In this document: positions 5,550 through 51,396 of the stretch, in pieces
Numbering within the stretch: position 1 is the first letter of the stretch
How the letters are laid out: every line of letters begins with the position of its first letter
DNA from: Podarcis vaucheri
Lineage: Eukaryota
NCBI GenBank assembly: GCA_965113315.1
Contig: OZ220368.1
Direction: 5' to 3' (one strand)
DNA length: 64,000 nucleotides
The notes under the pieces: model-generated
Seen by the model: the letters and a program-made list of their open reading frames with translations, nothing else
Databases searched by the model: none
What the model was told of the DNA's origin: nothing
Made by a program: the position numbers and the translations under genes

Positions 5550-5602
<53 letters not shown>

Positions 5603-5680
5603 TTTCGTAGATTTTCACGGGTACAGGAATGCAGGTTTTGGTGTCTTCGGGTGTCTTCCCGTGTAAGAGTCGGGGTGTCT

Positions 5681-5722
5681 GTGCGACGTTTCGACGAGGT
5701 CTCACTCGTCATCTTCAGGCTG
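5681..5722 (-). ncRNA. Minimal hammerhead ribozyme motif, antisense copy in the inverted arm
   Basis: Reverse complement of 7301-7342. Confidence 0.75.
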
Positions 5723-6470
5723 GTGCTTTCGGCTTCTTGTTACTGGAACAGAGCAGAGTCTGGTGTTTGAGTTCCTATAAATACTGTTGAGGGGTGTGGT
5801 GTATAGCCTCCAACGTTCTGGGCAAAGAGGAAGTTCCTAGATTAGTGTGCCTTTTCTTCTTTTGTTCCTTAATTACTTGAGGGATATCTTGGGTGATTTC
5901 ATGAGTGATATTCAGAATATCACTGGGTGGGTCATTAAGTGTAGATTAGTTGCTAAAGCTTTCGTGTCTTGACCTCTTGAGCTTGTGAAGAGTTTTTCTG
6001 AGAAGATGGCTGTGCTGCATTTAGTTGTGCTCTGGCTTGGCTTCGTGTATAGGGGCGAGCTATGGTTTTGTGCCTTGTGCCAGCCAGATCTGTGTAGGGA
6101 TTGTAGGGGGGTGCAGCATCCGGAGGTGCCACTATAGTTTGGCTACTGGATGGAGTCTGTAATATGTCTGTGGAGAGGGTCTGGGTTTGGGTCTGGTGTG
6201 GTTGATTGGTGACGGCGTTCTGTGTGCCTCTGGTTCTGGTGTCGGTTTTTGTGGGGAGGGCTAATTTCCAGATGTCTGGCAGGCGGGACGTGTCGTCACG
6301 CTTGTTCATGTTGTGAGGGTGTTTCTCTATCTCGATGGCTTCCATGATTATTCTCTTGTGGTGATGTTCCATGTTAAAGAGCAATTTGGAATCTGCAAAA
6401 TTAATTTCATGTCCTGTTTCTTTCATGTGTTGGAAAAGAGAGGAAGTTTTTTCTTCTTTTTTGACGGCAT

Positions 6471-7070
6471 GAAATACCCTGCAAAGTCTGCCCAGCCACG
6501 TACATTGGACAAACAAACAGACGAATAAATGCACGTATCGCAGAACACAAGAATGCCGTCAAAAAAGAAGAAAAAACTTCCTCTCTTTTCCAACACATGA
6601 AAGAAACAGGACATGAAATTAATTTTGCAGATTCCAAATTGCTCTTTAACATGGAACATCACCACAAGAGAATAATCATGGAAGCCATCGAGATAGAGAA
6701 ACACCCTCACAACATGAACAAGCGTGACGACACGTCCCGCCTGCCAGACATCTGGAAATTAGCCCTCCCCACAAAAACCGACACCAGAACCAGAGGCACA
6801 CAGAACGCCGTCACCAATCAACCACACCAGACCCAAACCCAGACCCTCTCCACAGACATATTACAGACTCCATCCAGTAGCCAAACTATAGTGGCACCTC
6901 CGGATGCTGCACCCCCCTACAATCCCTACACAGATCTGGCTGGCACAAGGCACAAAACCATAGCTCGCCCCTATACACGAAGCCAAGCCAGAGCACAACT
7001 AAATGCAGCACAGCCATCTTCTCAGAAAAACTCTTCACAAGCTCAAGAGGTCAAGACACGAAAGCTTTAG
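6471..7070 (+). pseudogene. 5'-truncated PLE ORF: GIY-YIG endonuclease domain plus a low-complexity tail
   Basis: The frame from 6471 reads EIPCKVCPATYIGQTNRRINARIAEHKNAVKKEEKTSSLFQHMKETGH...EAIEI...MNKRDD, stop at 7070. It contains CxxC, YIG, R, H, E and N residues typical of PLE GIY-YIG. There is no RT and no start codon. A mirrored partial copy is on the - strand (5953-6470). Confidence 0.9.
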
Positions 7071-7300
7071 CAACTAATCTACACTTAATGACCCACCCAG
7101 TGATATTCTGAATATCACTCATGAAATCACCCAAGATATCCCTCAAGTAATTAAGGAACAAAAGAAGAAAAGGCACACTAATCTAGGAACTTCCTCTTTG
7201 CCCAGAACGTTGGAGGCTATACACCACACCCCTCAACAGTATTTATAGGAACTCAAACACCAGACTCTGCTCTGTTCCAGTAACAAGAAGCCGAAAGCAC

Positions 7301-7342
7301 CAGCCTGAAGATGACGAGTGAGACCTCGTCGAAACGTCGCAC
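7301..7342 (+). ncRNA. Minimal hammerhead ribozyme motif (PLE pLTR), tandem copy 1
   Basis: CUGAAGA (7305-7311), an extra U, stem II GACGAG/ugagac/CUCGUC, GAAA (7331-7334), palindromic ACGU in place of stem III, GUC site ending 7338. Stem I is only about 2 bp. Confidence 0.78.
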
Positions 7343-7449
7343 AGACACCCCGACTCTTACACGGGAAGACACCCGAAGACACCAAAACCTGCATATATAT
7401 ATACAGGAATGCAAGGGGCTCTGTTCCAGTAACAAGAAGCCGAAAGCAC

Positions 7450-7491
7450 CAGCCTGAAGATGACGAGTGAGACCTCGTCGAAACGTCGCAC
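7450..7491 (+). ncRNA. Minimal hammerhead ribozyme motif, tandem copy 2
   Basis: Same sequence as copy 1, offset by 149 nt: CUGAAGA 7454-7460, GAAA 7480-7483, GUC ends 7487. Confidence 0.78.
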
Positions 7492-8057
7492 AGACACCCC
7501 GACTCTTACACGGGAAGACACCCGAAGACACCAAAACCTGCATTCCTGTACCCGTGAAAATCTACGAAAGCATATATATATATATATATATGGCGGTGAA
7601 ACAGAAAATGAGCCTCTGGGAAAGTTGGTGGGGCAGAAGCTTTCTTGGACTGGAGGAACCGTGTGATGCTCCTTTATTTAATTTTTTTAGACACGAATCT
7701 GTTAAATTTGCCAGTGGTGCAGCTAAGTGATTTTAGAACCTGGACTTAATATTCTTAATACTCCGCCTATGGCTGCATGTATTGTTTTAGTTGCGCAGTG
7801 AAGTGCAGAAGTAACACTTCTCGTCTTCTCCTCCCCCTGCCTTGTGATTCCATGCTTTATAACTGCTTTGACATTCCTGGTATGTCACAACAAACATATG
7901 TTTGCCAAACCAGAATACGGGGGGAAGAAATACTCTGTGGCTCCCTTGCAAGGGAGCAAGAGATGGGGAGGGCACTGATGCAGCTCTTCAGCAAGAGCGC
8001 AATATATCATATATTGTGAAAAAAATTTCAGGGAACCTGGAGAAGTCTAATAAAGTA

Positions 8058-8666
8058 CCGTATTTTTCGCTCTATAGGACGCACCTGGCGCTGCGCAGAG
8101 AGGGGGAGAATTCCCCCCCTTGTTTTCCCCCTATGAAACAAGGTGCCATTCAAGGTGCGTTCAGGCGGCTAATTTGGAAGCCTGGAGAGCTAGAGGGGTC
8201 GGTGCACACCGAACCCTCTTGCTCTCCAGGCTTCAGGTTCCTTTCGACCCACTCTTTGGGGCTGGTGGGGGGAAGCCCAAAGCCAGCCACAAAGAGCAGG
8301 TCGGGGAGCAGCGGAAAGGCACGCAGCCTTCCCGTTGCTCCACGAGCTTCTTGGGGCTGCCAGGGAAGCCCAGGGCTATGGCTTCTTTAGCCCCATGCAT
8401 GCTCTCCCAGCTGGTGAGGTGGTGCACGGCTAAAGAGGCTGCTGCCATAGCCGTGCGCCACCTCTCCAGCCGGGAGAGGCTGCATGCGGCTATGGCAATA
8501 CCTCCACCTCCCGCAAAAGCCCGCAAGAGCCGTGCAGAGCTTGTGTGCGGCTTTTGGGGGCTTTTCTTGCCTGCCTCCCCCCCTGAATTCTCTCCATAGG
8601 ACGCACACACATTTCCCCTTCATTTTTCGAGGGGAAAAAGTGCGTCCTATAGAGTGAAAAATACAG
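8058..8666. mobile_element. Non-autonomous Tc1/mariner-pogo type DNA transposon (MITE)
   Basis: TIRs ccgtatttttcgctctataggacgcac / gtgcgtcctatagagtgaaaaatacag, flanked by TA (8056-8057 and 8667-8668). GC-rich interior, no transposase. Confidence 0.88.
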
Positions 8667-10859
8667 TATTCATGGTCACACCATGGTTTTAGTAGAACCA
8701 AATATATGGAAGAAGCAGGCTGGCTAGAATCTCACATGGCTTAAGCAGGTTACCATGGTGAAAGAGAAGTTGAGTCTTGGATTATAACTGGTCCAGATTC
8801 TGGTGTTGAAAAGCATGGAGTGGACACCTGATGGAACAATCCCATCTCTTCTCCTGTGCCCTGTTCTGGGGCTTCTCCTGACTCTCCAGAGAAGATTGGG
8901 GGAAAGAGTGGAATGTGCTTGGCGGTTGGGAGCTCCATTGCGCAGGTGGAGTCTTTGCCCTGGTTTCCCCAAGTGGAACAGGTTAGTTGAATCTGATGCT
9001 TGATATGACTGAACTTAGGCGTAAAAGCAGCCCAAAGCCATAGGTCTTCTAATGCAAACATTATTGCCTAGAGCTTGTGCACACGAACAGGCTTTACACA
9101 GTGTTTTTGAACTCCAGTTTTAATTTGCCTGCCACTGTTATCTCTACGAGGTTTGCTGTATGGTACAATATGGCTCATGCGGTCGCTCTCCTATCTCCTC
9201 CTATTATAGGGTGCTATTTTTCTCTTGTCACGTTTTGATGGCAAAGTCTTTTATAACCCGATCATCAGAGAAAAATGGTTTTGTCATTCTCCTCAACATT
9301 TGGAAAAGTGAAGTAGATAATATCTGCAATTCTGAAGCTATGTGCTCTGGTGTAAAGCCATTGAACCCAATGTAACTACTCTGGGTAAATGGGTAAACAA
9401 TGGCAGACTGTCACCTGAGATGGGGGAGTCATTCCTTCTGTAGATTACATTACACTCTCTGCTGCACACTTCTGTATGTTTCATTTTGGCTTCCGCACAA
9501 GTGAAGTGTAACCTGTGACCCTTCCTCTATGCAAAGCCTTTGGACAATTTCAAGTGGCTAAATCAAAGCTGTCTTCGCCACCTTTCTCCCCTTCTTCCCT
9601 TTCTGGTGTTGAGAACTGGTGTCATTTCTCTCTCTCTCACACACACACCAACCCCCGCATCAGAAACTATCAGAAAATAGTTATTCTTGCAGTTGGAAGC
9701 AAAAGTGGCAAGGAGAAATGAAGGAGCCGTAAATAGTGTAAAGAAAATGACAGCCTGCTTTGTGTCACTAACGTTGGAAAACAGGTCACCAGTCTGAGAC
9801 GCTTCTTGCGTCTTTATTGCTGCTGCTCAGTATTTCATACTTTTGATTTGTGTTTACCTTGATTTAGCTGATGTAGCAACACCCCTCTCCCCCAGCAATC
9901 ACCGTCCAATAATGCCACATTTATCTGAGAGAAAATGAGATAATCATCATATGGCTCAGTATTATAGGAAGGGTAAATTAGATTTGCTCTTACCCAATGG
10001 CATTTTATTGCTACTTTTTATGCTCTGTAAATAGAAAAGGGGCAGATTGGAGCGATTACTTTACAAAAATAAAACCTTCTACCACCAAATGCAATTTTAA
10101 GTCACTGGGGAAGTAGGTAACCTTGAAAACTGAACTTTGCATAAGAATGCAGTGGAAAAACAGGGAAGCATCAAGATTTCTTACTGACGAATGTAATTAC
10201 CCATGCCTTTTCCTCTGTCACATTCATTCTCCACCTTGGTCACATGGCTCCTCTCTTAAATATGATTCTGTGCACATCTACTTAGACTCACATTTCATTT
10301 GGATGTGTTGTTTTATTTACTCATGTATTCAGATTAGTTGTCCTGCCTGCCCTGTGCCAAAGGCTCAGGGTGGGTTTACAGCACTTTTCAATCAAACACA
10401 TAAAATCCCTCTAAAAACAAGATTGATAAAATGCTGTGATACAAATATGCTCAGGCTTTGCCTTAAACAAGCACACATGGTAACAATTCAAGGCCAGCTT
10501 ATCCGCCACAAAGACAGATTGCCTGTCGGGGCACTTAGTTCATGAGGGTACCAAATAGCCTTTTGCTGGTAGGATGGGAAAGGAAGCTGGCATATTTTCA
10601 GAGAGGAAAAAAGGAGGATGGAAACAAGGGGAAAGGATAAGGGAAAGGGTCAGAGCTCAAGTTTGTAAGAACTGTGATATAAGAGAGCGTGAAGATTCAC
10701 ACCAAGGGAAAAGGTTCACGTACAAGTTATTTCTAACCACTGCACCTACTTGAGATGCTAAGGAGAAGCAGCTGCATCTCCTCAGTATATTGATAATGCG
10801 CTCAAAAGCACCAGCTGACACCACTCAGCAGTTTTGTGTTGATGTGAAACACAACCAGG

Positions 10860-17126: not shown

Positions 17127-17562
17127 ATTTATCTAGACAAAACCAGTGCAGCTTACGACCTTCTAAGCTGAAGGAAACCCCCTAGCTACGCAATGTGTTT
17201 TGTTAGGGGCTGGACAACTGCCCCATAATTGCAGTTCTAGGTGACCGGGCACACAAGGAGGGAGGAGAAGAGCTTTATCAAATCTTTGATTCATGCAATC
17301 CAACTGGATGGGTTTTCATATAGGACTGGTCTAGACCAGGTATCAAAGTTTTGTTAGTGTCAGACTATTAACATTATAAAAGTCTGATTAAATTGAGCAT
17401 CTGTCCTGGAAGTGAAAGCCTTTTGTACTGCATGACAAGCCCTAGTGCCAGCTGGTGAACCCATGGGGACCCACCCATCAATATAATAAAACCTACTAAC
17501 TGGGGAATCATAATGCAAATGGAACAATACTGTACATGGAACACATACTGATTATTTATAAT

Positions 17563-17725
17563 AAAAAAATTCCTTCCAGTAGTACAGTACAGTGTGTATC
17601 TGAAGAAGTGTGCATGCACACGAAAGCTCATACCAAGAACTAACTTAGTTGGTCTTTAAGGTGCTACTGGAAGGGGTTTTTTTATTTTGACTATGGCAGA
17701 CCAACACGGCTACCTATCTGTAACT
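17563..17725 (+). mobile_element. Short Penelope-like (possibly Neptune-like) terminal remnant with hammerhead and a short 5' inversion
   Basis: Reads gtatctgaagaagtgtgcatgcacacgaaagctcataccaagaactaacttagttggtctttaaggtgctactggaagg...; the leading ccttccagtag (17572-17582) is the reverse complement of the downstream ctactggaagg. A near-identical copy is at 45195-45283. Confidence 0.8.
17596..17633 (+). ncRNA. Minimal type I hammerhead ribozyme motif (second family)
   Basis: Stem I GUAU/AUAC, core CUGAAGA (17600-17606), an extra A, stem II GUGUGC-au-GCACAC, GAAA (17622-17625), palindromic AGCU, CUC cleavage triplet ending 17629. Confidence 0.85.
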
Positions 17726-19774
17726 GATTATTTATGTATTGTAACTGGTGCCTATGGTCTCAAAATTCCAGATGTGCCCACTGCTCCAAAAAGGTTGACG
17801 ACCCTTGCAAGTTAGGAACCCCTTATTATGTATTGGCTGGGAAAGCGCACAGGGCTTCATCAAGTTGCTCTGCATTAGGCAGAGCATGGATGACAATAAA
17901 GCCCAATGTTGCTCAGTGCTGGGGAGAAACTCTGGGATCAAGCCTTCCTTCTTTTCTTGGTGCTGCAGTCTATTTTCTCTTGTTTCCAGTAGTACCAAAC
18001 TACAACGATCGAGGCTGGAGAAGAAAGCACAAGACAGATCAGTCACCCTTCAGACCTGTCACTGCAAATGTTGGGGATACCTCGTTCATCCTTCTTATGT
18101 GGTGTTAAGTGTACCAATACTATGTGACATGTTGTGGCAGGCAACTAGACTCAACAGTTTTCTTGGGGTGGTAGTGGTAAAGTTAAGTTAATCTGAAGTC
18201 AAATCGGCCTAGTAGTAGATATTGCTGACCCATCTGTGCTCACCGATCCATATTTTAATCACATATAACAACTAGTTGCCCAAGATGGTGATGCACATCT
18301 GCATCCAAAAATGAGCAAAGATACTTTCATGGGTCTTGAGCAAGCAGATCTGCACCCATATGCACACCATATGTGGACTTGGCATCCATGTTGATGGCAC
18401 GTGCAAAAGCCTGATTCCACAACATAATCCCTTTGCTGGAATAGACCGTGGTATTTAGTATTCAAGGGAACAGAAGACACATACCCAAAACACCTTTCTT
18501 TGGAAAATAACATCTAAATAATTATGCTGTGGGAAAGAAATGGCTTGAATTGTATGTCCTGAATATTATTTCCCCTCCCACTCTTGCTCTAGTACTTCTT
18601 CAGATGACATTTTGAGGATATTGGGGTTGGTTTTTTGGAATTTTGGGATTATACATCAAATGCAAGCAGATGATCTATGCCTTTGAGGAGGCATGTTTTT
18701 AATGTACCACTTATCTTTAGCATCAGAAGCTGCCTTTCTTTCATCTCTGAGGGGCATGGGGGTTTATCTGTTCTATGGTCTTATAAATAGCAAAGCTGGA
18801 AAGGGGGAAAGAGAGCAAGCAAAGGACTTGTCTGCTGAACTATTATGCTTACAGTGAGGATGCAGGCAGGTGACAATAAATGCTATGTGCTGCACCCTTA
18901 ATTGCACATTACTATAATCTTGGCTGTTGGAATAAAATAACATGCCACTCATACTCCTCTTTTTTCTATTCCATTCCATGGGAAAGTACATTCCAAAAAT
19001 GCAGATGCTTGTGAATAATCTAAATGCAAAATCCTGTCCAGAGGAAGAGAGGGGTGGGAGGAAAAGCATAAACCTAGCAGCTTTTGTGTGCTAGTTAATT
19101 TCCTTTCCTTGCAGGGGCATTGAGCATGACAGTGTCAGAAAGCACAGATGCAGAAATGTTTGCTTCCAAGACTTCATGCAGATTAAAAACAAACAAATAA
19201 GAAGTGGGGAGGGCAAAAATCCCCTCTCTCAAAATTGCTTTGCCATTTCTGACTTTCTGTATTTGGAAATAATTTTACCAGGAGATATTGCTGGCCTTTT
19301 GCTTGACAAGAACATTCCCTTGCTGGGCTATTAAGTTGAAAATGCAGTCAAGTATTAACACTGAAACAGTTTGCATAATTTCACCCTCTGCATAGAACAC
19401 CTTCAATGAGGAAAGTGTGAGGGAGAAGTACACTATTTCCATTAAGGGGGTGGGGGGGATGGGGGGAGGAAATGGTATTGAGTAGTTCAAGGGCTGGCTT
19501 GTTCCTCTTGGATCTAAGCAGATCAGCTGATTTTTGTCTAGAGATCTCAGGCTGCTGATCAGCTGCCTGCCAAAGCTACCATTGCAGTTCACTTTCTCGC
19601 AATCCACTGGAAACTCTTATCTTTCAGATGGTGCAAAAAGAAAGAAGAAAAATAACAGCTAAGTAAAGAGATCACACATAATATATTTACACTTCCAAAA
19701 TCCCAGTGTCGCAAAGATTAGTGGCAAGTGGCTTCAGCCTTTGACTTCCAAATGTCTTTATAAGATTTATTTGT

Positions 19775-36982: not shown

Positions 36983-38125
36983 TATGGTTACTAGACGTCC
37001 CCGTTTCCCGGGGACAGTCACCGGATTTACAGATCTGTCCCTGGGCAAAATCCGCCCCTGGAATGTCCCCAGATTTCATTTAATGTCCCTGGATTTATAT
37101 TTTAAGTGTTGTAGATTTATTAGTAGGAATTGAATGTTGTGTGATTGGTTCAACGGCACAAGACACACCATATGGGGACTTCTGGCGATGCAAAATGGTG
37201 GATGCCATGCCAGCGAGCAGCTCCTAAAGCCAGCCAGAGCCAACTGCGCTACCAGGCTGGCTCCGGGCTGCTGAGACTGCCACTGCCACCGCCACTGCCA
37301 AGGAGGAACCGGGGACACCCAGTGCATCAACTGGGGAAACTGCTGAAGAAGGAGGAGGAGGAGGAGGAGTTTGGAGGATCTATCTTGGGAGAAGAACAGC
37401 TTACCCATTTGTAATCATTTCAGCCTGCACAACCCCAGAAGGGGCACGTACACACACATGGGAACAAAAGAAGAAGAAGAGGAGTTTGGATTTGATATCC
37501 CGCTTTATCACTACCCGAAGGAGTCTCAAAGCAGCTAACATTCTCCTTTCCCTTCCTCCCCCGCAACAAACACTCTGTGAGGTGAGTGGGGCTGAGAGAC
37601 TTCAAAGAATTGTGACTGGCCCAAGGTCACCCAGCAGCTGCATGTGGAGGAGCGGAGACGCGAACCCGGTTCCCCAGATTACGAGTCTACCACTTTTAAC
37701 CACTACACCACACTGGCTCTCCAGCTACTCTGCCGACTGCTCAGCAGGTTCTGGGGCCAGGAAAACCCCATAGCCAATGCAGGGAGAAGGAGAGGTGAAG
37801 GAGAAGGAAAAGAGAGAAAGAGGAAGGAGAAAAAAGAGGGGAGCCCTGACATTGCCGCACTGCTGCCGCCACTGAGGAAAAGAGGTAGGAGAGCACTGGG
37901 AGGGCAAGGACATGTGGCCAAGCCCAAGCCCAATCGGAGCCTACTCCACAGCAGCTAGCACTTCAAGAGAACAGGCTGGGGTCCAGAGGAAGGCCGCGTG
38001 ACAGAGGATACCACAGAAGAGAAGATATTACTTCTTAATTATTATTTTTTAAATTTAATAATATTTTTTCTCTCTTTTTTAAAAAAAGTTTCCCTGGATT
38101 CTTTGGAAAAAATCTGGTAACCTTA
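36983..38125. mobile_element. Non-autonomous hAT DNA transposon with an 8-bp TSD
   Basis: Degenerate TIRs tatggttactaga / tctggtaacctta. TSD atttaaat at 36975-36982 and 38126-38133. It interrupts an older L2-like sequence. Confidence 0.75.
37468..37722 (-). mobile_element. Squam3-like SINE nested in a hAT element
   Basis: Reverse complement of the 50716-50973 family, with a (CTT)n tail. Confidence 0.85.
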
Positions 38126-43120: not shown

Positions 43121-45194
43121 GATATAACCACCGGGCAACCCCTTGATCATTTGATGGAAGAATGTTTTTAACTGTAATTAAGCTAATCTTTCAAACTCTA
43201 ATAATGATTGAAGATGGAACTTTTCAATTAATAGGGTTCTCTCACTCTGCTTTTCTGCTCTTTTCTTCTTCTAGGTTCTCTAGTTTATTGATGCCTTTGA
43301 TCTAGCACTGGCAACTTACATTAGTTTAACCCAAAGGATGTATCACAATACGATACATCGTGCGGTTTATATAATGGACTTAGGGCTATTGCCTGAATAA
43401 AGAAATCTATAGCCAATTGATCATATGGGTTTTAATCAATTAGTCAGTGCATTTGAGTAAAAATATTAGTTCTGAAGGCACTTTATCCTACCTTTTTCAG
43501 ATGATGTGCACATGGGCTACTGCAATCACCACCTTAGAATATAGATTTCCTTCTGTGTGGCAAATAAGGGGGGTGGGATACCTCTTCTAAGATGGCGCCT
43601 GACATCTACCGGTTTTGTAAATGCTGTTGTTAAAAAGTAATTAACTTTTTTTAAAAAAAGAAAAGCCTTCTCCTTGATTAATTTTAACTGTTCAAAGGTT
43701 TTTAATTAAAATCTAACTGATTAATTGATTAAATGTTACAGCCTTAAATGAACTTGATGACCTTAGAGGTCACATTCCTGTGATTCCACAACGTTGGCTT
43801 GGTAGTTATTGAATTTGTCTAATGATATTGTTCACTGCATACCTGCTTCGGCAGAGGAACCACAAAACCAGAACACAGCTGCTAGTTTGACTGGCGTGCA
43901 GATTCTATTTTTGTGAGAGTTTTCTGAATGTAGACTACATGATGATGACATAAATCAAGACTTTGCTTTCCTCACGGGGTGGACTGAATTTACTATCTTC
44001 TTCCTTCTTTCCAGTGCATAGTCAGTTCTGTCAGTGACTTATCTGAAAAGGTATTAAAGATTTCTTCCTTAACAGTGCATACTGTATACTGATGATCATT
44101 TTGCTTAAAGAATGGGAGGCCTTGACCCAAGGAGCTTACGATTTGAAAACAGATGCATGTTTATATTAATTTTGCATGTCAGCAAAAACCTACTAATAGA
44201 AAGGCAGGCTAGACAACACATGTCCTCTGAAATATTAAAGAGTAGTGTTGTGTGTGCTAAATAAAACAACCCTTGGTAAAATATTTAAAAATAAACATTG
44301 AACTTCACCTTTCCTCACAAATTTTTCTACAACTTGTCTCACACACAACTTAACTATTTTTTTAAAAATAAAAACTCGGTAGCAGACCCCCCCATGCCTA
44401 AAATAAGTAGTGTTAGCATTCACATTGACCTTCCATTATGGATTCTTTGGGGCAATCATCCTTTCTAGAGAAAATTTCCATGACAGCACAATGCTTGATC
44501 TTGTCGATATCTATTATACTAGCCAACATGGGTCATTTATCAACATTCATTTTGAATGTATATCAGAAAAACTTCAGGACAGGGGCTTCAATGAGTAATT
44601 CCAGTGAACAGCGCTGTGGTGAATATGCATTGTGCACAGAAATGTGTTTAATACTGGCATTACCCATATATTTGGTTTTGATTTTCCAAATAATTAAGGC
44701 GAAAATAGAGGATGTTGTTATTGTAGTGGTTCACACATGGGATATTTATTTATATTTATTTATTTATATTTCTTAAATTTGTATGCCGCCCTTCATCCAA
44801 AGATCACAGTGCACAACATAAAAATACAAAACGAGAACACAAAATGCATAATGAAACAAAAACAAACCAATAAACTCCCCTCCCACAAACACATTTTAAA
44901 AAACATTTAGAATGTTAATCAGCCGAAGGTTCTATATGAACTAAGAGTATGGTCTCTGTCCTGAGAAATGTACTGTGTACAGTTGAGCACAGTTAAAGTA
45001 CCTCAGTAGGACCAAAGGAGAAAGAAGATATAATAGCTGAAGCATATATATGTGAAGAAATGCTCCTCTCCACAGCACATAGCTTAAGTGCAGCGTATGA
45101 AAAGTTTTCTGGAATATTTTAAGAGGCACTTGAAAGAGAGGGCATGCCAGCATTATATATATATTTTTATTAAAGATTTTCTTGTTTTACAGAA

Positions 45195-45283
45195 TAAAAA
45201 AATTCCTTCCAGTAGCGCCTTAAAGACCAACTAAGTTAGTTCTTGGTATGAGCTTTCGTGTGCATGCACACTTCTTCAGATAC
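45195..45283 (-). mobile_element. 89-bp PLE-derived hammerhead mini-insertion with an 11-bp target-site duplication
   Basis: Flanked by gttttacagaa at 45184-45194 and 45284-45294. Reverse complement of the element starting at 17596. Confidence 0.85.
45246..45283 (-). ncRNA. Minimal type I hammerhead ribozyme motif (second family, antisense to AGBL4)
   Basis: Reverse complement reads GUAU CUGAAGA A GUGUGCAUGCACAC GAAA GCUC AUAC, identical to 17596-17633. Confidence 0.85.
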
Positions 45284-48200
45284 GTTTTACAGAAGTATGT
45301 GTAATGTCTCTCGTATTTTTTCCATGTAACTTTTTTACAAATTGGTTTCATTTGTTGAGACATTAGGAAGAAAAGGGGTGGAGGGGGAAGATGGGTGGGG
45401 GTGGGGTCGGGTGGCGATGTTTCTATATTGCTGAATGTATGTAGGGTTTGGTGTCAGCGTTGCTCGTGCAGGTTCTCTGCTGTTCACTTGTGTTCCTTTG
45501 TTTGTGATTGGCTGTGGCGATCTTTGTTTTCGTGTGTGAGTGGGGTGGGTGGGTGGGCATGCCAGCATTATATAAAGGAATTCAATGTGTTATGAGCATA
45601 CAGAAGGAATGGTGAAACCATGGGATACGTTTAGTGTGAGCAACCTGAATAGGTAAGATGTATAATTTTTACAACAAAGTTTTGGTCATAGATCAAGGAA
45701 GCTTAAAGGAACACTACAAAGGGAAATACAAGAGATCAACAGGCGATATCACATGTCTGACACCAAAGTTGTAGAGAAGCCTGAATCTGTTCAAAGCATT
45801 AGGAGAGTAAAACTATGTCTGTGTGTCCCTCCCCCACCCCACTTTTTTGTGTACAGTTAGTAGACTGTGTTTGAAGAAGGAGGGCATCAAATAAATAAAG
45901 CGTATTCTTTTTGGTACTGCCCATTGCCTCTGTAATAAATCAGACTATTGGCTTACAAAATTTGCAAAGCTTGCTATGAATTTGACTGAAATACCACTTC
46001 TGTGTGAGCTCTAATAAATTATTCTACGTATATTTATTTATTACAGTAACACTAGAGTCTAAAGCTGCATTTGAATCTGTGCCTATATTATTACTTGTTG
46101 TATGTTGTGCCAACCTATAACACAATATGGTTTTCAGTAGTTGTGGCTCAAGCATATCTAATATGCTTACTTTTTGCTTCCAAATCTTTTTCTGAGTCCA
46201 TGGATTTGGGATAGGCATGAGTGTGATGTGGAGGTGCCATAAAAAAAGACTGTATTGAGCATTGGTTTGAAAATCTTCACTATTTAATTCTGGTCTTAGG
46301 CGACAGGTAAATCTCCTAGAAGACTAGCTGGCTATCCACAACATTTTTCAGTATCTTACCGTATCTTATAGTTCTTATGCAATAAGAAGAGGGCAATCTT
46401 GAATTTAGTACCAGCAGTAACTTTATGTCCTGAGAAGCAACTCATGCATTCTTTTGCATATGCAACCAGACAGTAATATATTTCAGATTATCCTAATTCA
46501 TCCTGTCTGAGCTGAAAGAATGATGGTTATTTATGCTTGAGTCTAGCAATGCAATGGAGAGCTGTTTTCTTTTTGAATTTCCATTGGTTCCTTCCAAGTT
46601 TTATTTGGATACTACCAAAAGAACAGCTGTGGTGTTATTATCTTTTATTTTTGCATGTGATTTTCCATTCAGTCCAATGGAGGAAGCAAATATATGTTCA
46701 TAAAAATATGTGAGTTATAGCCAGTTATGTCTCCCTGCAAGTGGAATAGACATCCATGAGTGGAATGACCTCCCTCTCAATTCCTTTACTTTCCCCTCCA
46801 GCCCATGTGCCCCCCAAATATTCTTTGGGGAGTTGGGAAATGCTCCTGAGCAGATGTGGGGCACATGGGGGAGGAGAGGAAAGGGGTCCAGTCACCTGAG
46901 TGAAAGTCCATTCGAGTGATGTTTGATATCACATTCTGCATATAGATACAGTTCTTTTACTGACATAAATAGAGAAGTATCCAGCAGAGCTATGCATATT
47001 TATTAGAGCAGTACAAGCCCAATACATTTTGTTCCCATAAGCAGAGCCCAAATAGTTTGTTCAGTCCATACTGGGGTCACCATTTTGTTCTATCCAAACA
47101 ACAGTTCCTACCCCCATGGCACCACCTGAAGCAGGGCACTCAACCCTAATGCATGGGAGGGCTGGACCTGTATAAATTCATCCAGAACTGAATGCTAGTT
47201 TGAGGAATTGATCTTTTAGCCATCAAGACATCTTTCCCCCCTCCTTCTTTCAAAACTAACTTACTTATATTTCATGTTTGGTTTGCTGATTCAATCTGGA
47301 TCACACCATTTGACCAGGAGCAGCATAATAATTCCAAAATCCAAAGAAATATATGGGAATACATTTTTTATTATTTTTTTAAAAATAGGGCACTAATTGG
47401 CAACCCAATTAATCTGCTCATCTGTGAAGAGAAAATATATTGCAACAAGTAGTTCCATTTCCAGAAGTCATTCTCAGAGGTAACATTATAGTGGTCTTGT
47501 TTTCTTCCAGCACTGCAACACGGTCCAACGCCTCAACAGTAGCATAGGTCAATTAGTGGACAAATTAAGCAATTATTAGCCACTAACAAGGGTGACTGGC
47601 ATCATTAGTCTTCCTGTTTACCAGCAAACTGTTATTCTAATAGAAGGACCAACAAATAAATTAGGGCATCTGTTCTATCACAGTGTCTGTCTTCAAGTAA
47701 ATTATATTAAATGGACCTGGTTTCTGCCAGATTCTTCACCTTAGTTTAACGAAATACAAGATATGTTTCTTGCTGATTATAGAAGATGTAAGTTTTAGTT
47801 TGCATTGATTAATTAACACAACAAGCAAATTATTTTAGTTTTAAATCTTCTTGATCTGAAGGCTATCATCTTCATCTGAAAGAAAAGCTTTGAGTCCTCA
47901 CTATAATTTGATTGTGGGGTATTAACATACATATAAGGAAGGTTTCATTTGCATCTTTGTCATGATGATCAATAGACCATTTCTTTCTTGTCTTTAGAAC
48001 TGAGATTTGCCTTTGACTTTTGCTATAAAGGTTTTAAGATACAATCTTCACTGAAGGCTGTCATAATGTTTGTTTTTGTTTTTCTTGAAGCTGGGTATAT
48101 ATATATATGCCTATTTCCCCATCCTCTCAGCAATTTCTTTTGTCTCAAAACCTCTCAGAGAAAAAGGAAAACATAATGGGAAAAACATTTGGGAAATGTA

Positions 48201-50715: not shown

Positions 50716-50973
50716 GAGGAGGAGGAGCCAGTGTGGTGTAGTGGTTAAGAGCGGTAGTCTCGTAATCTGGGGAACCGGGTTCACGTCTCCGCTCCTCCAC
50801 ATGCAGCTGCTGGGTGACCTTGGGCCAGTCACACTTCTCTGAAGTCTCTCAGCCCCACTCACCTCACAGAGTGTTTGTTGTGGGGGAGGAAGGGAAAGGA
50901 GAATGTTAGCCGCTTTGAGACTCCTGAAGGGGAGTGAAAGGCGGGATATCAAATCCAAACTCCTCCTCCTCCT
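50716..50973 (+). mobile_element. tRNA-derived squamate SINE (Squam3-like) with a 14-bp TSD
   Basis: gagccagtgtggtgtagtggttaagagc head and (CTC)n tail. TSD caatatcaagttag at 50702-50715 and 50974-50987. Confidence 0.88.
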
Positions 50974-51396
50974 CAATATCAAGTTAGCTATGTCAAACTA
51001 GGTTAACATGAATATTCTGAGTATCGACAGTATCTAGTCTTTGACAAGACTTCAATTGCCTTCATTATTGGGCTTGCTGGATTGTATAGGCTGCAAAAGA
51101 GTATTTTTGATTCAAGTAATGCCTAAGTAACTCCTAAGTAACTTAAATTTATTCAGTTCAAGAAACATATCTCTTCTGCACCAACTTCAGTAAGTAGTAC
51201 AAAGCTTTTAGAGAGGCAGTGACCATAAAGCAGCCTTGTTGACTCATGACAGCATGTGGAAGAAATCTGTATGGTTGTCAGATATGTGCATACTGATTTT
51301 TGTACTGCTAAAATGTTTAATTGCATTTTATTTTTAATGTATTTTTATATCTTTTCATTGGATTGATTTTGATATCTTATAAGCTGTGGTGTGATC

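Follow-up and report, generated by a model that had tools for sequence, protein, structure and literature searches.

In a 64,000-nt stretch of Podarcis vaucheri DNA (contig OZ220368.1 of assembly GCA_965113315.1; hereafter the window), a short insertion splits the remnant of another retroelement (Table 1). The 11-bp sequence GTTTTACAGAA occurs exactly twice in the window, the two copies being separated by 89 bp, and a match of 11 nucleotides at a fixed place has a chance probability of about 5e-7. The 3' boundary of the insert carries a 2-nt ambiguity, since TT is common to the element and its target. By its other copies and reading frames, the host appears to be the 5'-truncated 3' end of a LINE-type repeat; comparison with Pfam gave no usable match to name this repeat, which we take to be L1-like by the CCHC motif of its longer copies. 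From 1,691 candidates 40 were scored, and in the 24 best matches below the window itself the insert is absent and the target single, with at most one mismatch to the target in 20 copies and at least two in the other four. The exact target-site duplication (TSD) claimed in an earlier note on this DNA, and the empty site that it expected in other copies of the host, were thus both found, and the duplication is no feature of the host repeat. The host remnant has its own exact 19-bp TSD, and one insertion is therefore nested in the other, each with its duplication intact. Taken singly, the insertion is an ordinary dead copy within another repeat.

Table 1. Features of the nested insertion and of a second stub in the window.
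Feature	Position	Strand	Basis or remark
11-bp TSD, copy at the element's 3' end	45184..45194	.	exact repeat; target single in 24/24 other host copies
11-bp TSD, copy at the element's 5' end	45284..45294	.	exact repeat
Neptune-type PLE stub, 89 bp (0 to +88 of the pseudo-LTR/5' leader)	45195..45283	-	comparison with copies L086 and L181
T-run end, first of the two preferred 3' ends of the PLE family	45195..45202	-	inferred reverse-transcription start site
Minimal type I hammerhead motif	45246..45283	-	predicted cut between 45250 and 45249; sequence, folds, features as in the available text of PMC4209133
Hammerhead stem I	45280-45283 / 45246-45249	-	
Hammerhead core CUGAAGA	45273-45279	-	
Bulged A	45272	-	
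Palindromic stem II	45258-45271	-	
GAAA	45254-45257	-	
Host: LINE-type repeat 3' end, 5'-truncated, split by the stub	45159..45554	-	other copies and reading frames; own 19-bp TSD
19-bp TSD of the host (window 45140-45573)	45140-45158 and 45555-45573		exact repeat
Second stub, same PLE family	17560..17722	+	inverted piece 17560-17582, spacer, arm 17594-17722
13-bp TSD of the second stub	17547-17559 and 17723-17735		

Other repeats were seen in the window. An 842-bp inverted repeat with 100% complementarity and an 82-nt spacer (positions 5581-7591) adjoins a TA run and a further duplicate of 126-174 bp, and may reflect the assembly or a very young inverted insertion. A 29-bp inverted pair lies at 8056-8668, 555 bp apart and MITE-like, and another young repeat is present in two copies that are 96% identical (37470-37719 and 50725-50974).

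On the minus strand, the first base of the 89-bp insert is the first base of hammerhead stem I, as the earlier note had stated; this G (position 45283) is numbered 0 below, and negative numbers lie upstream. The 5' strand of stem I is followed in order by the core, the bulged A, the palindromic stem II, GAAA, GCUC and the 3' side of stem I, after which come 51 nt more with the T-run last, where about 50 nt to an A/T-rich end had been described. Characters given for minimal type I hammerheads in the available text of PMC4209133 are all present, namely a CUGANGA and GAAA core, a bulged base, a G10.1-C11.1 pair, a short stem I and a palindromic remnant of stem III. The Rfam scan returned no hammerhead match in the insert, whose fold does not surpass those of shuffled sequences in stability (z +0.9), so the assignment rests on the motif, by which the insert carries a minimal type I hammerhead.

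Searched with a 33-mer taken from the insert, the genome gave 11,077 exact matches; the reversed control gave none. The 89-mer belongs to the pseudo-LTR of a Penelope-like element (PLE) that is young and of Neptune type. Compared with the corresponding stretch of a long copy (L086), it has a single difference in 89 bases; compared with an intact tandem copy (L181), it has four. Upstream of stem I many copies run on into a GIY-YIG frame. L181 (G000:C25:3428500-3436500) is a partial tandem PLE copy with pseudo-LTRs, situated inside another LINE, and its single ORF of 921 open codons joins a reverse transcriptase (RVT_1, E 3e-12) to a C-terminal GIY-YIG domain (E 3e-5), as in EN+ PLEs. Also as in EN+ PLEs, the family has pseudo-LTRs in partial tandem, inverted 5' copies and an optional tail of 30-40 bp. 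A CX4CxxC linker is found in L181 and L182; a CX2-5CxxC linker ahead of the GIY-YIG domain is given in the accessible part of PMC8557442 as a mark of Neptune that is common to Nematis. The parent is therefore an EN+ PLE, by its linker apparently of Neptune type, the choice of Neptune over Nematis resting on its occurrence in a vertebrate. Its first ATG lies within the tail, about 60 nt past the hammerhead. Many copies besides L181 keep long open frames, and the family is hence recent. In the second stub of the window, the arm begins at -2 and includes the tail. Another PLE family of this genome, Poseidon-like and lacking the Zn-finger linker, was met at L332:3-1184 (minus strand; 27% identical).

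The 5' and 3' endpoints of the family were counted from genome-wide pattern searches and from a position-ordered sample; our first DNA search was not used for this purpose because it was biased to copies with the 3' junction of the query. Exact copies number 9,329 from position 0, 3,458 reaching -13 and 2,431 reaching -31. The loss is thus 7.4% per nt between 0 and -13 and 1.9% per nt between -13 and -31, and the excess of about 4,870, or some 52% of the 9,329, corresponds to copies whose 5' end lies at stem I or within the 13 nt ahead of it, 0 and -2 being the commonest points. Breaks were counted at 0 in 1,756 copies, at -2 in 2,024 and at -3 in 408, compared with only 72 copies that start at the hammerhead cut site (+34). 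The position-ordered sample comprised 70 loci in the first 5.2 Mb of one contig (C1; anchor +26..+48; 6 of the first 100 matches listed left out), and its 106 arms include 14 with an end at 0, 13 with one at -2 and none with one at -1. By event, 33 of 69 end within -6..+3, 30 are long and six end further inside. Long arms, whose endpoints come from a separate count since those of the 106-arm sample are shortened by private indels of the reference, have ends spread over 24-903 nt (47/50). The 3' ends fall into two groups, one at the T-run (48/106 arms) and one about 35-45 nt beyond, at the end of the tail (46/106). A further 10 of the 106 arms were classed as ending before the T-run, which speaks against the idea that 89 nt is close to the smallest conceivable mobilised unit. 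Inverted events make up 38 of the 69, and the tail is on exactly one arm in 33 of 36 inverted pairs. Random 5' endpoints, as expected of ordinary truncation, are therefore not what this family displays, and the peak at stem I anticipated by the earlier note exists; the discrete element that it was to indicate was not borne out. Because about half of the PLE copies stop near the same point, the 89-bp stub is likely a complete short copy rather than a separate ribozyme-only element; of the mobile insertion first proposed, the true TSD and the origin by a PLE stand.

Head-to-tail arrays of stubs also occur in this genome. At G000:C1:5631960-5632404 (L183) five units of about 101-104 nt form a retrozyme-like array, and three further arrays (L184, L207, L241) have units of 91, 74 and 85 nt. 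Units of all four start between -6 and 0 and have 3' breaks at differing points.

Short and long copies could not be told apart by lineage. Over 76 positions, 262 short arms diverge by 1.17% and 82 long arms by 1.11% from one reference, to which 147 and 46 of them, respectively, are identical. No variant private to short copies was found among these arms and positions, and two variants had a slight excess in long arms (p 0.048 each, uncorrected). A simple pattern based on the consensus found no Pol III B box, and one weak A-like match. As short and long copies agree in divergence and in variants, the short ones form no separate lineage. The marks of a SINE or independent non-autonomous element, namely diagnostic variants and an internal Pol III promoter, are missing, and so is that of a non-LTR retrozyme, tandem units each with a hammerhead, the 89-bp copy being solo and some of its relatives tandem.

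Several signs point to a template end at 0 or -2. The base preceding 0 is G in 72 of 100 matches listed, where about 30 would be expected (hand count, p 7e-18). In a set of 255 short arms from all fetched loci, deliberately enriched for such classes and assigned heuristically, 10 clean cases have one untemplated base at 0, a G in 9 of them (two rows being one repeated unit); of 11 arms with two untemplated bases, 6 have TG. Ends at -2 carry T in 82 of 100 matches listed and in all seven clean cases, so that position -3 has T in these copies versus A in the template; candidate causes are slippage on the GU repeat, addition of CA to a capped end at -1, or a modified A that was misread. A source variant with T at -3 was ruled out, since 89 of 91 long arms have A. 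The stub's own 5' junction is without an extra base (junction row L001). A TATATAG begins at -33 and TCAGT spans -5..-1, and re-primed fragments and tandem jumps restart at 0. Because the 5' end falls 31-33 nt past the TATA box and carries an untemplated G, it fits a capped RNA end. An extra G marks capped full-length L1 insertions (available text of PMC11702581), and MMLV reverse transcriptase on capped RNA adds C and then A (available text of PMC6885630). In four raw-read RNA runs of a related organism, loose ends pile up at 0 in all four and a single G occurs in two tandem joints (4 and 2 reads); 83-90% of the matched reads continue into unlike sequence and ORF depth is low. These runs, mostly of embedded copies, gave no start flagged at 0 and no splice, and their back-joints to 0 are as compatible with genomic tandems as with circular RNA.

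Secondary-structure prediction links this end to the ribozyme. Stem I has a predicted probability of 0.61-0.87 when the RNA begins at 0 or -2; once six or more upstream bases are present, these pair with the core and the value is at most 0.23. The bases adjoining stem I upstream (L181:3772-3797) are complementary to the hammerhead core and also resemble a 3' splice site. In the predicted folds the hammerhead would therefore form only in RNA that starts at 0 or -2, its core being paired with upstream bases in read-through RNA, and this would be why the probable RNA start coincides with stem I. Lunse et al. have reportedly described dimers of PLE hammerheads.

We consider it probable that the stub is a short insertion of the Neptune-type PLE for which reverse transcription started inside the RNA, about 90 nt from its 5' end, and ran off an end that was likely capped. 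Pol II would start at 0 or -2 from the TATA box of the upstream pseudo-LTR, placing a priming region near the 5' end of the RNA and, where the copy is tandem, a second one close to its 3' end. The PLE protein would nick AT-rich DNA and prime at the T-run or at the end of the tail. Priming in the 5' region would give complete copies of 90 or 130 nt, and priming in the 3' repeat long copies with scattered truncation; head-to-head pairs would arise where both nicked strands are primed, and tandem arrays by jumps from the RNA end. The 89-bp stub would then be one T-run-primed arm joined with an 11-bp stagger; it has no TATA box and was likely dead on arrival. This run-off model is supported by the parent with an intact ORF, the two fixed 3' ends, the 0/-2 peak, the untemplated G, the TSD, the lack of a peak at the cut site and the sequence and age that short copies share with long ones. 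Against it stand the RNA runs with no start flagged at 0, the missing extra G of the stub itself, the T of the -2 ends, which the model does not explain, and the many G junctions that are also compatible with microhomology of 1-4 nt. A(-3), the textbook initiator base, is only a minor end. The cap and priming behaviour that the model assumes is borrowed by analogy from the Poseidon PAc, L1 and MMLV enzymes, not from a Neptune reverse transcriptase. More tentatively, and as a possibility to which we do not commit ourselves, about half of the Neptune family insertions may be complete strong-stop-like copies that record the capped start, with a hammerhead that folds only in the 5' copy and is silenced by upstream bases in the 3' copy, hence a start-site-gated ribozyme, and with template jumping as a route from PLE by-products to retrozyme-like arrays.

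An RNA end at 0 or -2 could be real and yet come from processing (cutting or a splice-related event at the acceptor-like TTTCAG directly upstream, perhaps with re-capping) instead of a transcription start. The 13 nt upstream resemble a 3' splice site with an exon start at -1, addition of CA to a capped end at -1 would look exactly like the -2 class with T, and the intron end of Drosophila virilis Penelope maps to helix I in the available text of PMC4209133. We hold this to be unlikely, as no arm among 106 ends at -1, the TATA spacing fits a transcription start, and the -2 ends share no recurring upstream exon, two single matches lying upstream of the leader on a partly reliable position map; the lack of a skip-type joint in the four RNA runs weighs little, element RNA being scarce there. 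We give little credence to extreme 5' truncation, by stalling at structure near the ribozyme on a continuous RNA or by fold-back of the cDNA, in spite of the hairpin of -6..-2 with +4..+8 predicted in read-through RNA and of the inverted pairs that make up 23 of 33 peak events. The enzyme reaches the 3' side of stem I first, so that a stall is expected at the 3' foot of the structure and not at its 5' base, and in RNA that extends upstream no stem I is predicted; ends at -6, which fold-back would give, occur in none of 106 arms. The untemplated G and the solo copies with clean TSDs are left unexplained, and untemplated bases with repeated re-priming are what a physical template end would give. 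The first of the earlier note's two explanations, a reverse transcriptase halting at the ribozyme boundary, accordingly finds little in its favour.

Its other explanation, a discrete non-autonomous hammerhead mini-element with source copies of its own that is mobilised in trans by a PLE, seems very unlikely to us. A fixed 5' end, two fixed 3' ends, TSDs and copies in thousands would suit such an element, as would tandem arrays of 74-104-nt units, the arrangement by which the accessible parts of PMC7229834 and bioRxiv 10.64898/2026.07.22.740005 define retrozymes. The near identity of the 89-mer to a long copy, the equal divergence and shared variants of short and long arms and the missing B box all argue against it, and the tandem units break at differing places, some within the ORF. 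That hammerhead self-cleavage sets the 5' end we regard as scarcely tenable. In R2 elements the 5' end is defined by an HDV-like ribozyme, and here too the 5' end is the first base of a ribozyme; the cut would fall after +33, however, and a cleavage-defined end is contradicted by the ratio of starts there to those at 0.

The family-wide footprint makes 5'-end formation in PLEs testable and bears on the role of their hammerheads. If the run-off model is true, thousands of genomic stubs are a free map of the PLE RNA start and of both priming sites, uncleaved RNA is the template in vivo, and the conditions under which the hammerhead can fold follow a rule that lends itself to bench tests. Stubs of PLEs that have minimal hammerheads, tails and inverted arms are already known. 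The open-access literature searched reports no 5' pile-up or fixed 5' end of PLEs, no cap G and no folding switch.

The closest system is PAc (Poseidon_Ac) of Anolis carolinensis (Frangieh et al. 2024, PMC11167929), of which the following is taken from the available text. PAc likewise has a reverse transcriptase with GIY-YIG, a hammerhead at the pLTR-ORF junction, two internal start sites that bound the tail, AT-rich targets and extension of both strands, and its hammerhead cleavage is dispensable for insertion. Unlike PAc, the element described here has a Neptune-type Zn-finger linker and an ORF that starts about 60 nt past the hammerhead, that of PAc starting inside it; that text mentions no genomic 5' pile-up, cap G or transcript start. 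The architecture of our motif is that of the minimal hammerheads of metazoan PLEs, and the same source (Cervera and de la Pena 2014, PMC4209133), in the text at hand, interprets thousands of single motifs per genome as truncated PLEs, whereas the short copies here are not randomly truncated, about half ending at one point that is not the cut site. According to the accessible parts of PMC3846280 and PMC2377424, the rotifer Pen2a pLTR and Drosophila virilis Penelope also have a promoter inside the pLTR (in Pen2a a TATA plus an initiator-like motif), a tail on one inverted arm, a tail that encodes the first residues and TSDs of 8-10 bp; the D. virilis promoter differs in being TATA-less and internal with an intron, and in neither case do these parts connect the start with short insertions as a class. 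Non-LTR retrozymes, as described in the available portions of PMC7229834 and bioRxiv 10.64898/2026.07.22.740005, resemble the stubs in being pLTR-related and hammerhead-bearing, with short tandem units and dispersed monomers, reptiles included. In contrast to them, the 89-bp copy is solo, has a minimal hammerhead and gives no sign of a lineage of its own, and the stub arrays in this genome look like template jumps of the PLE enzyme.
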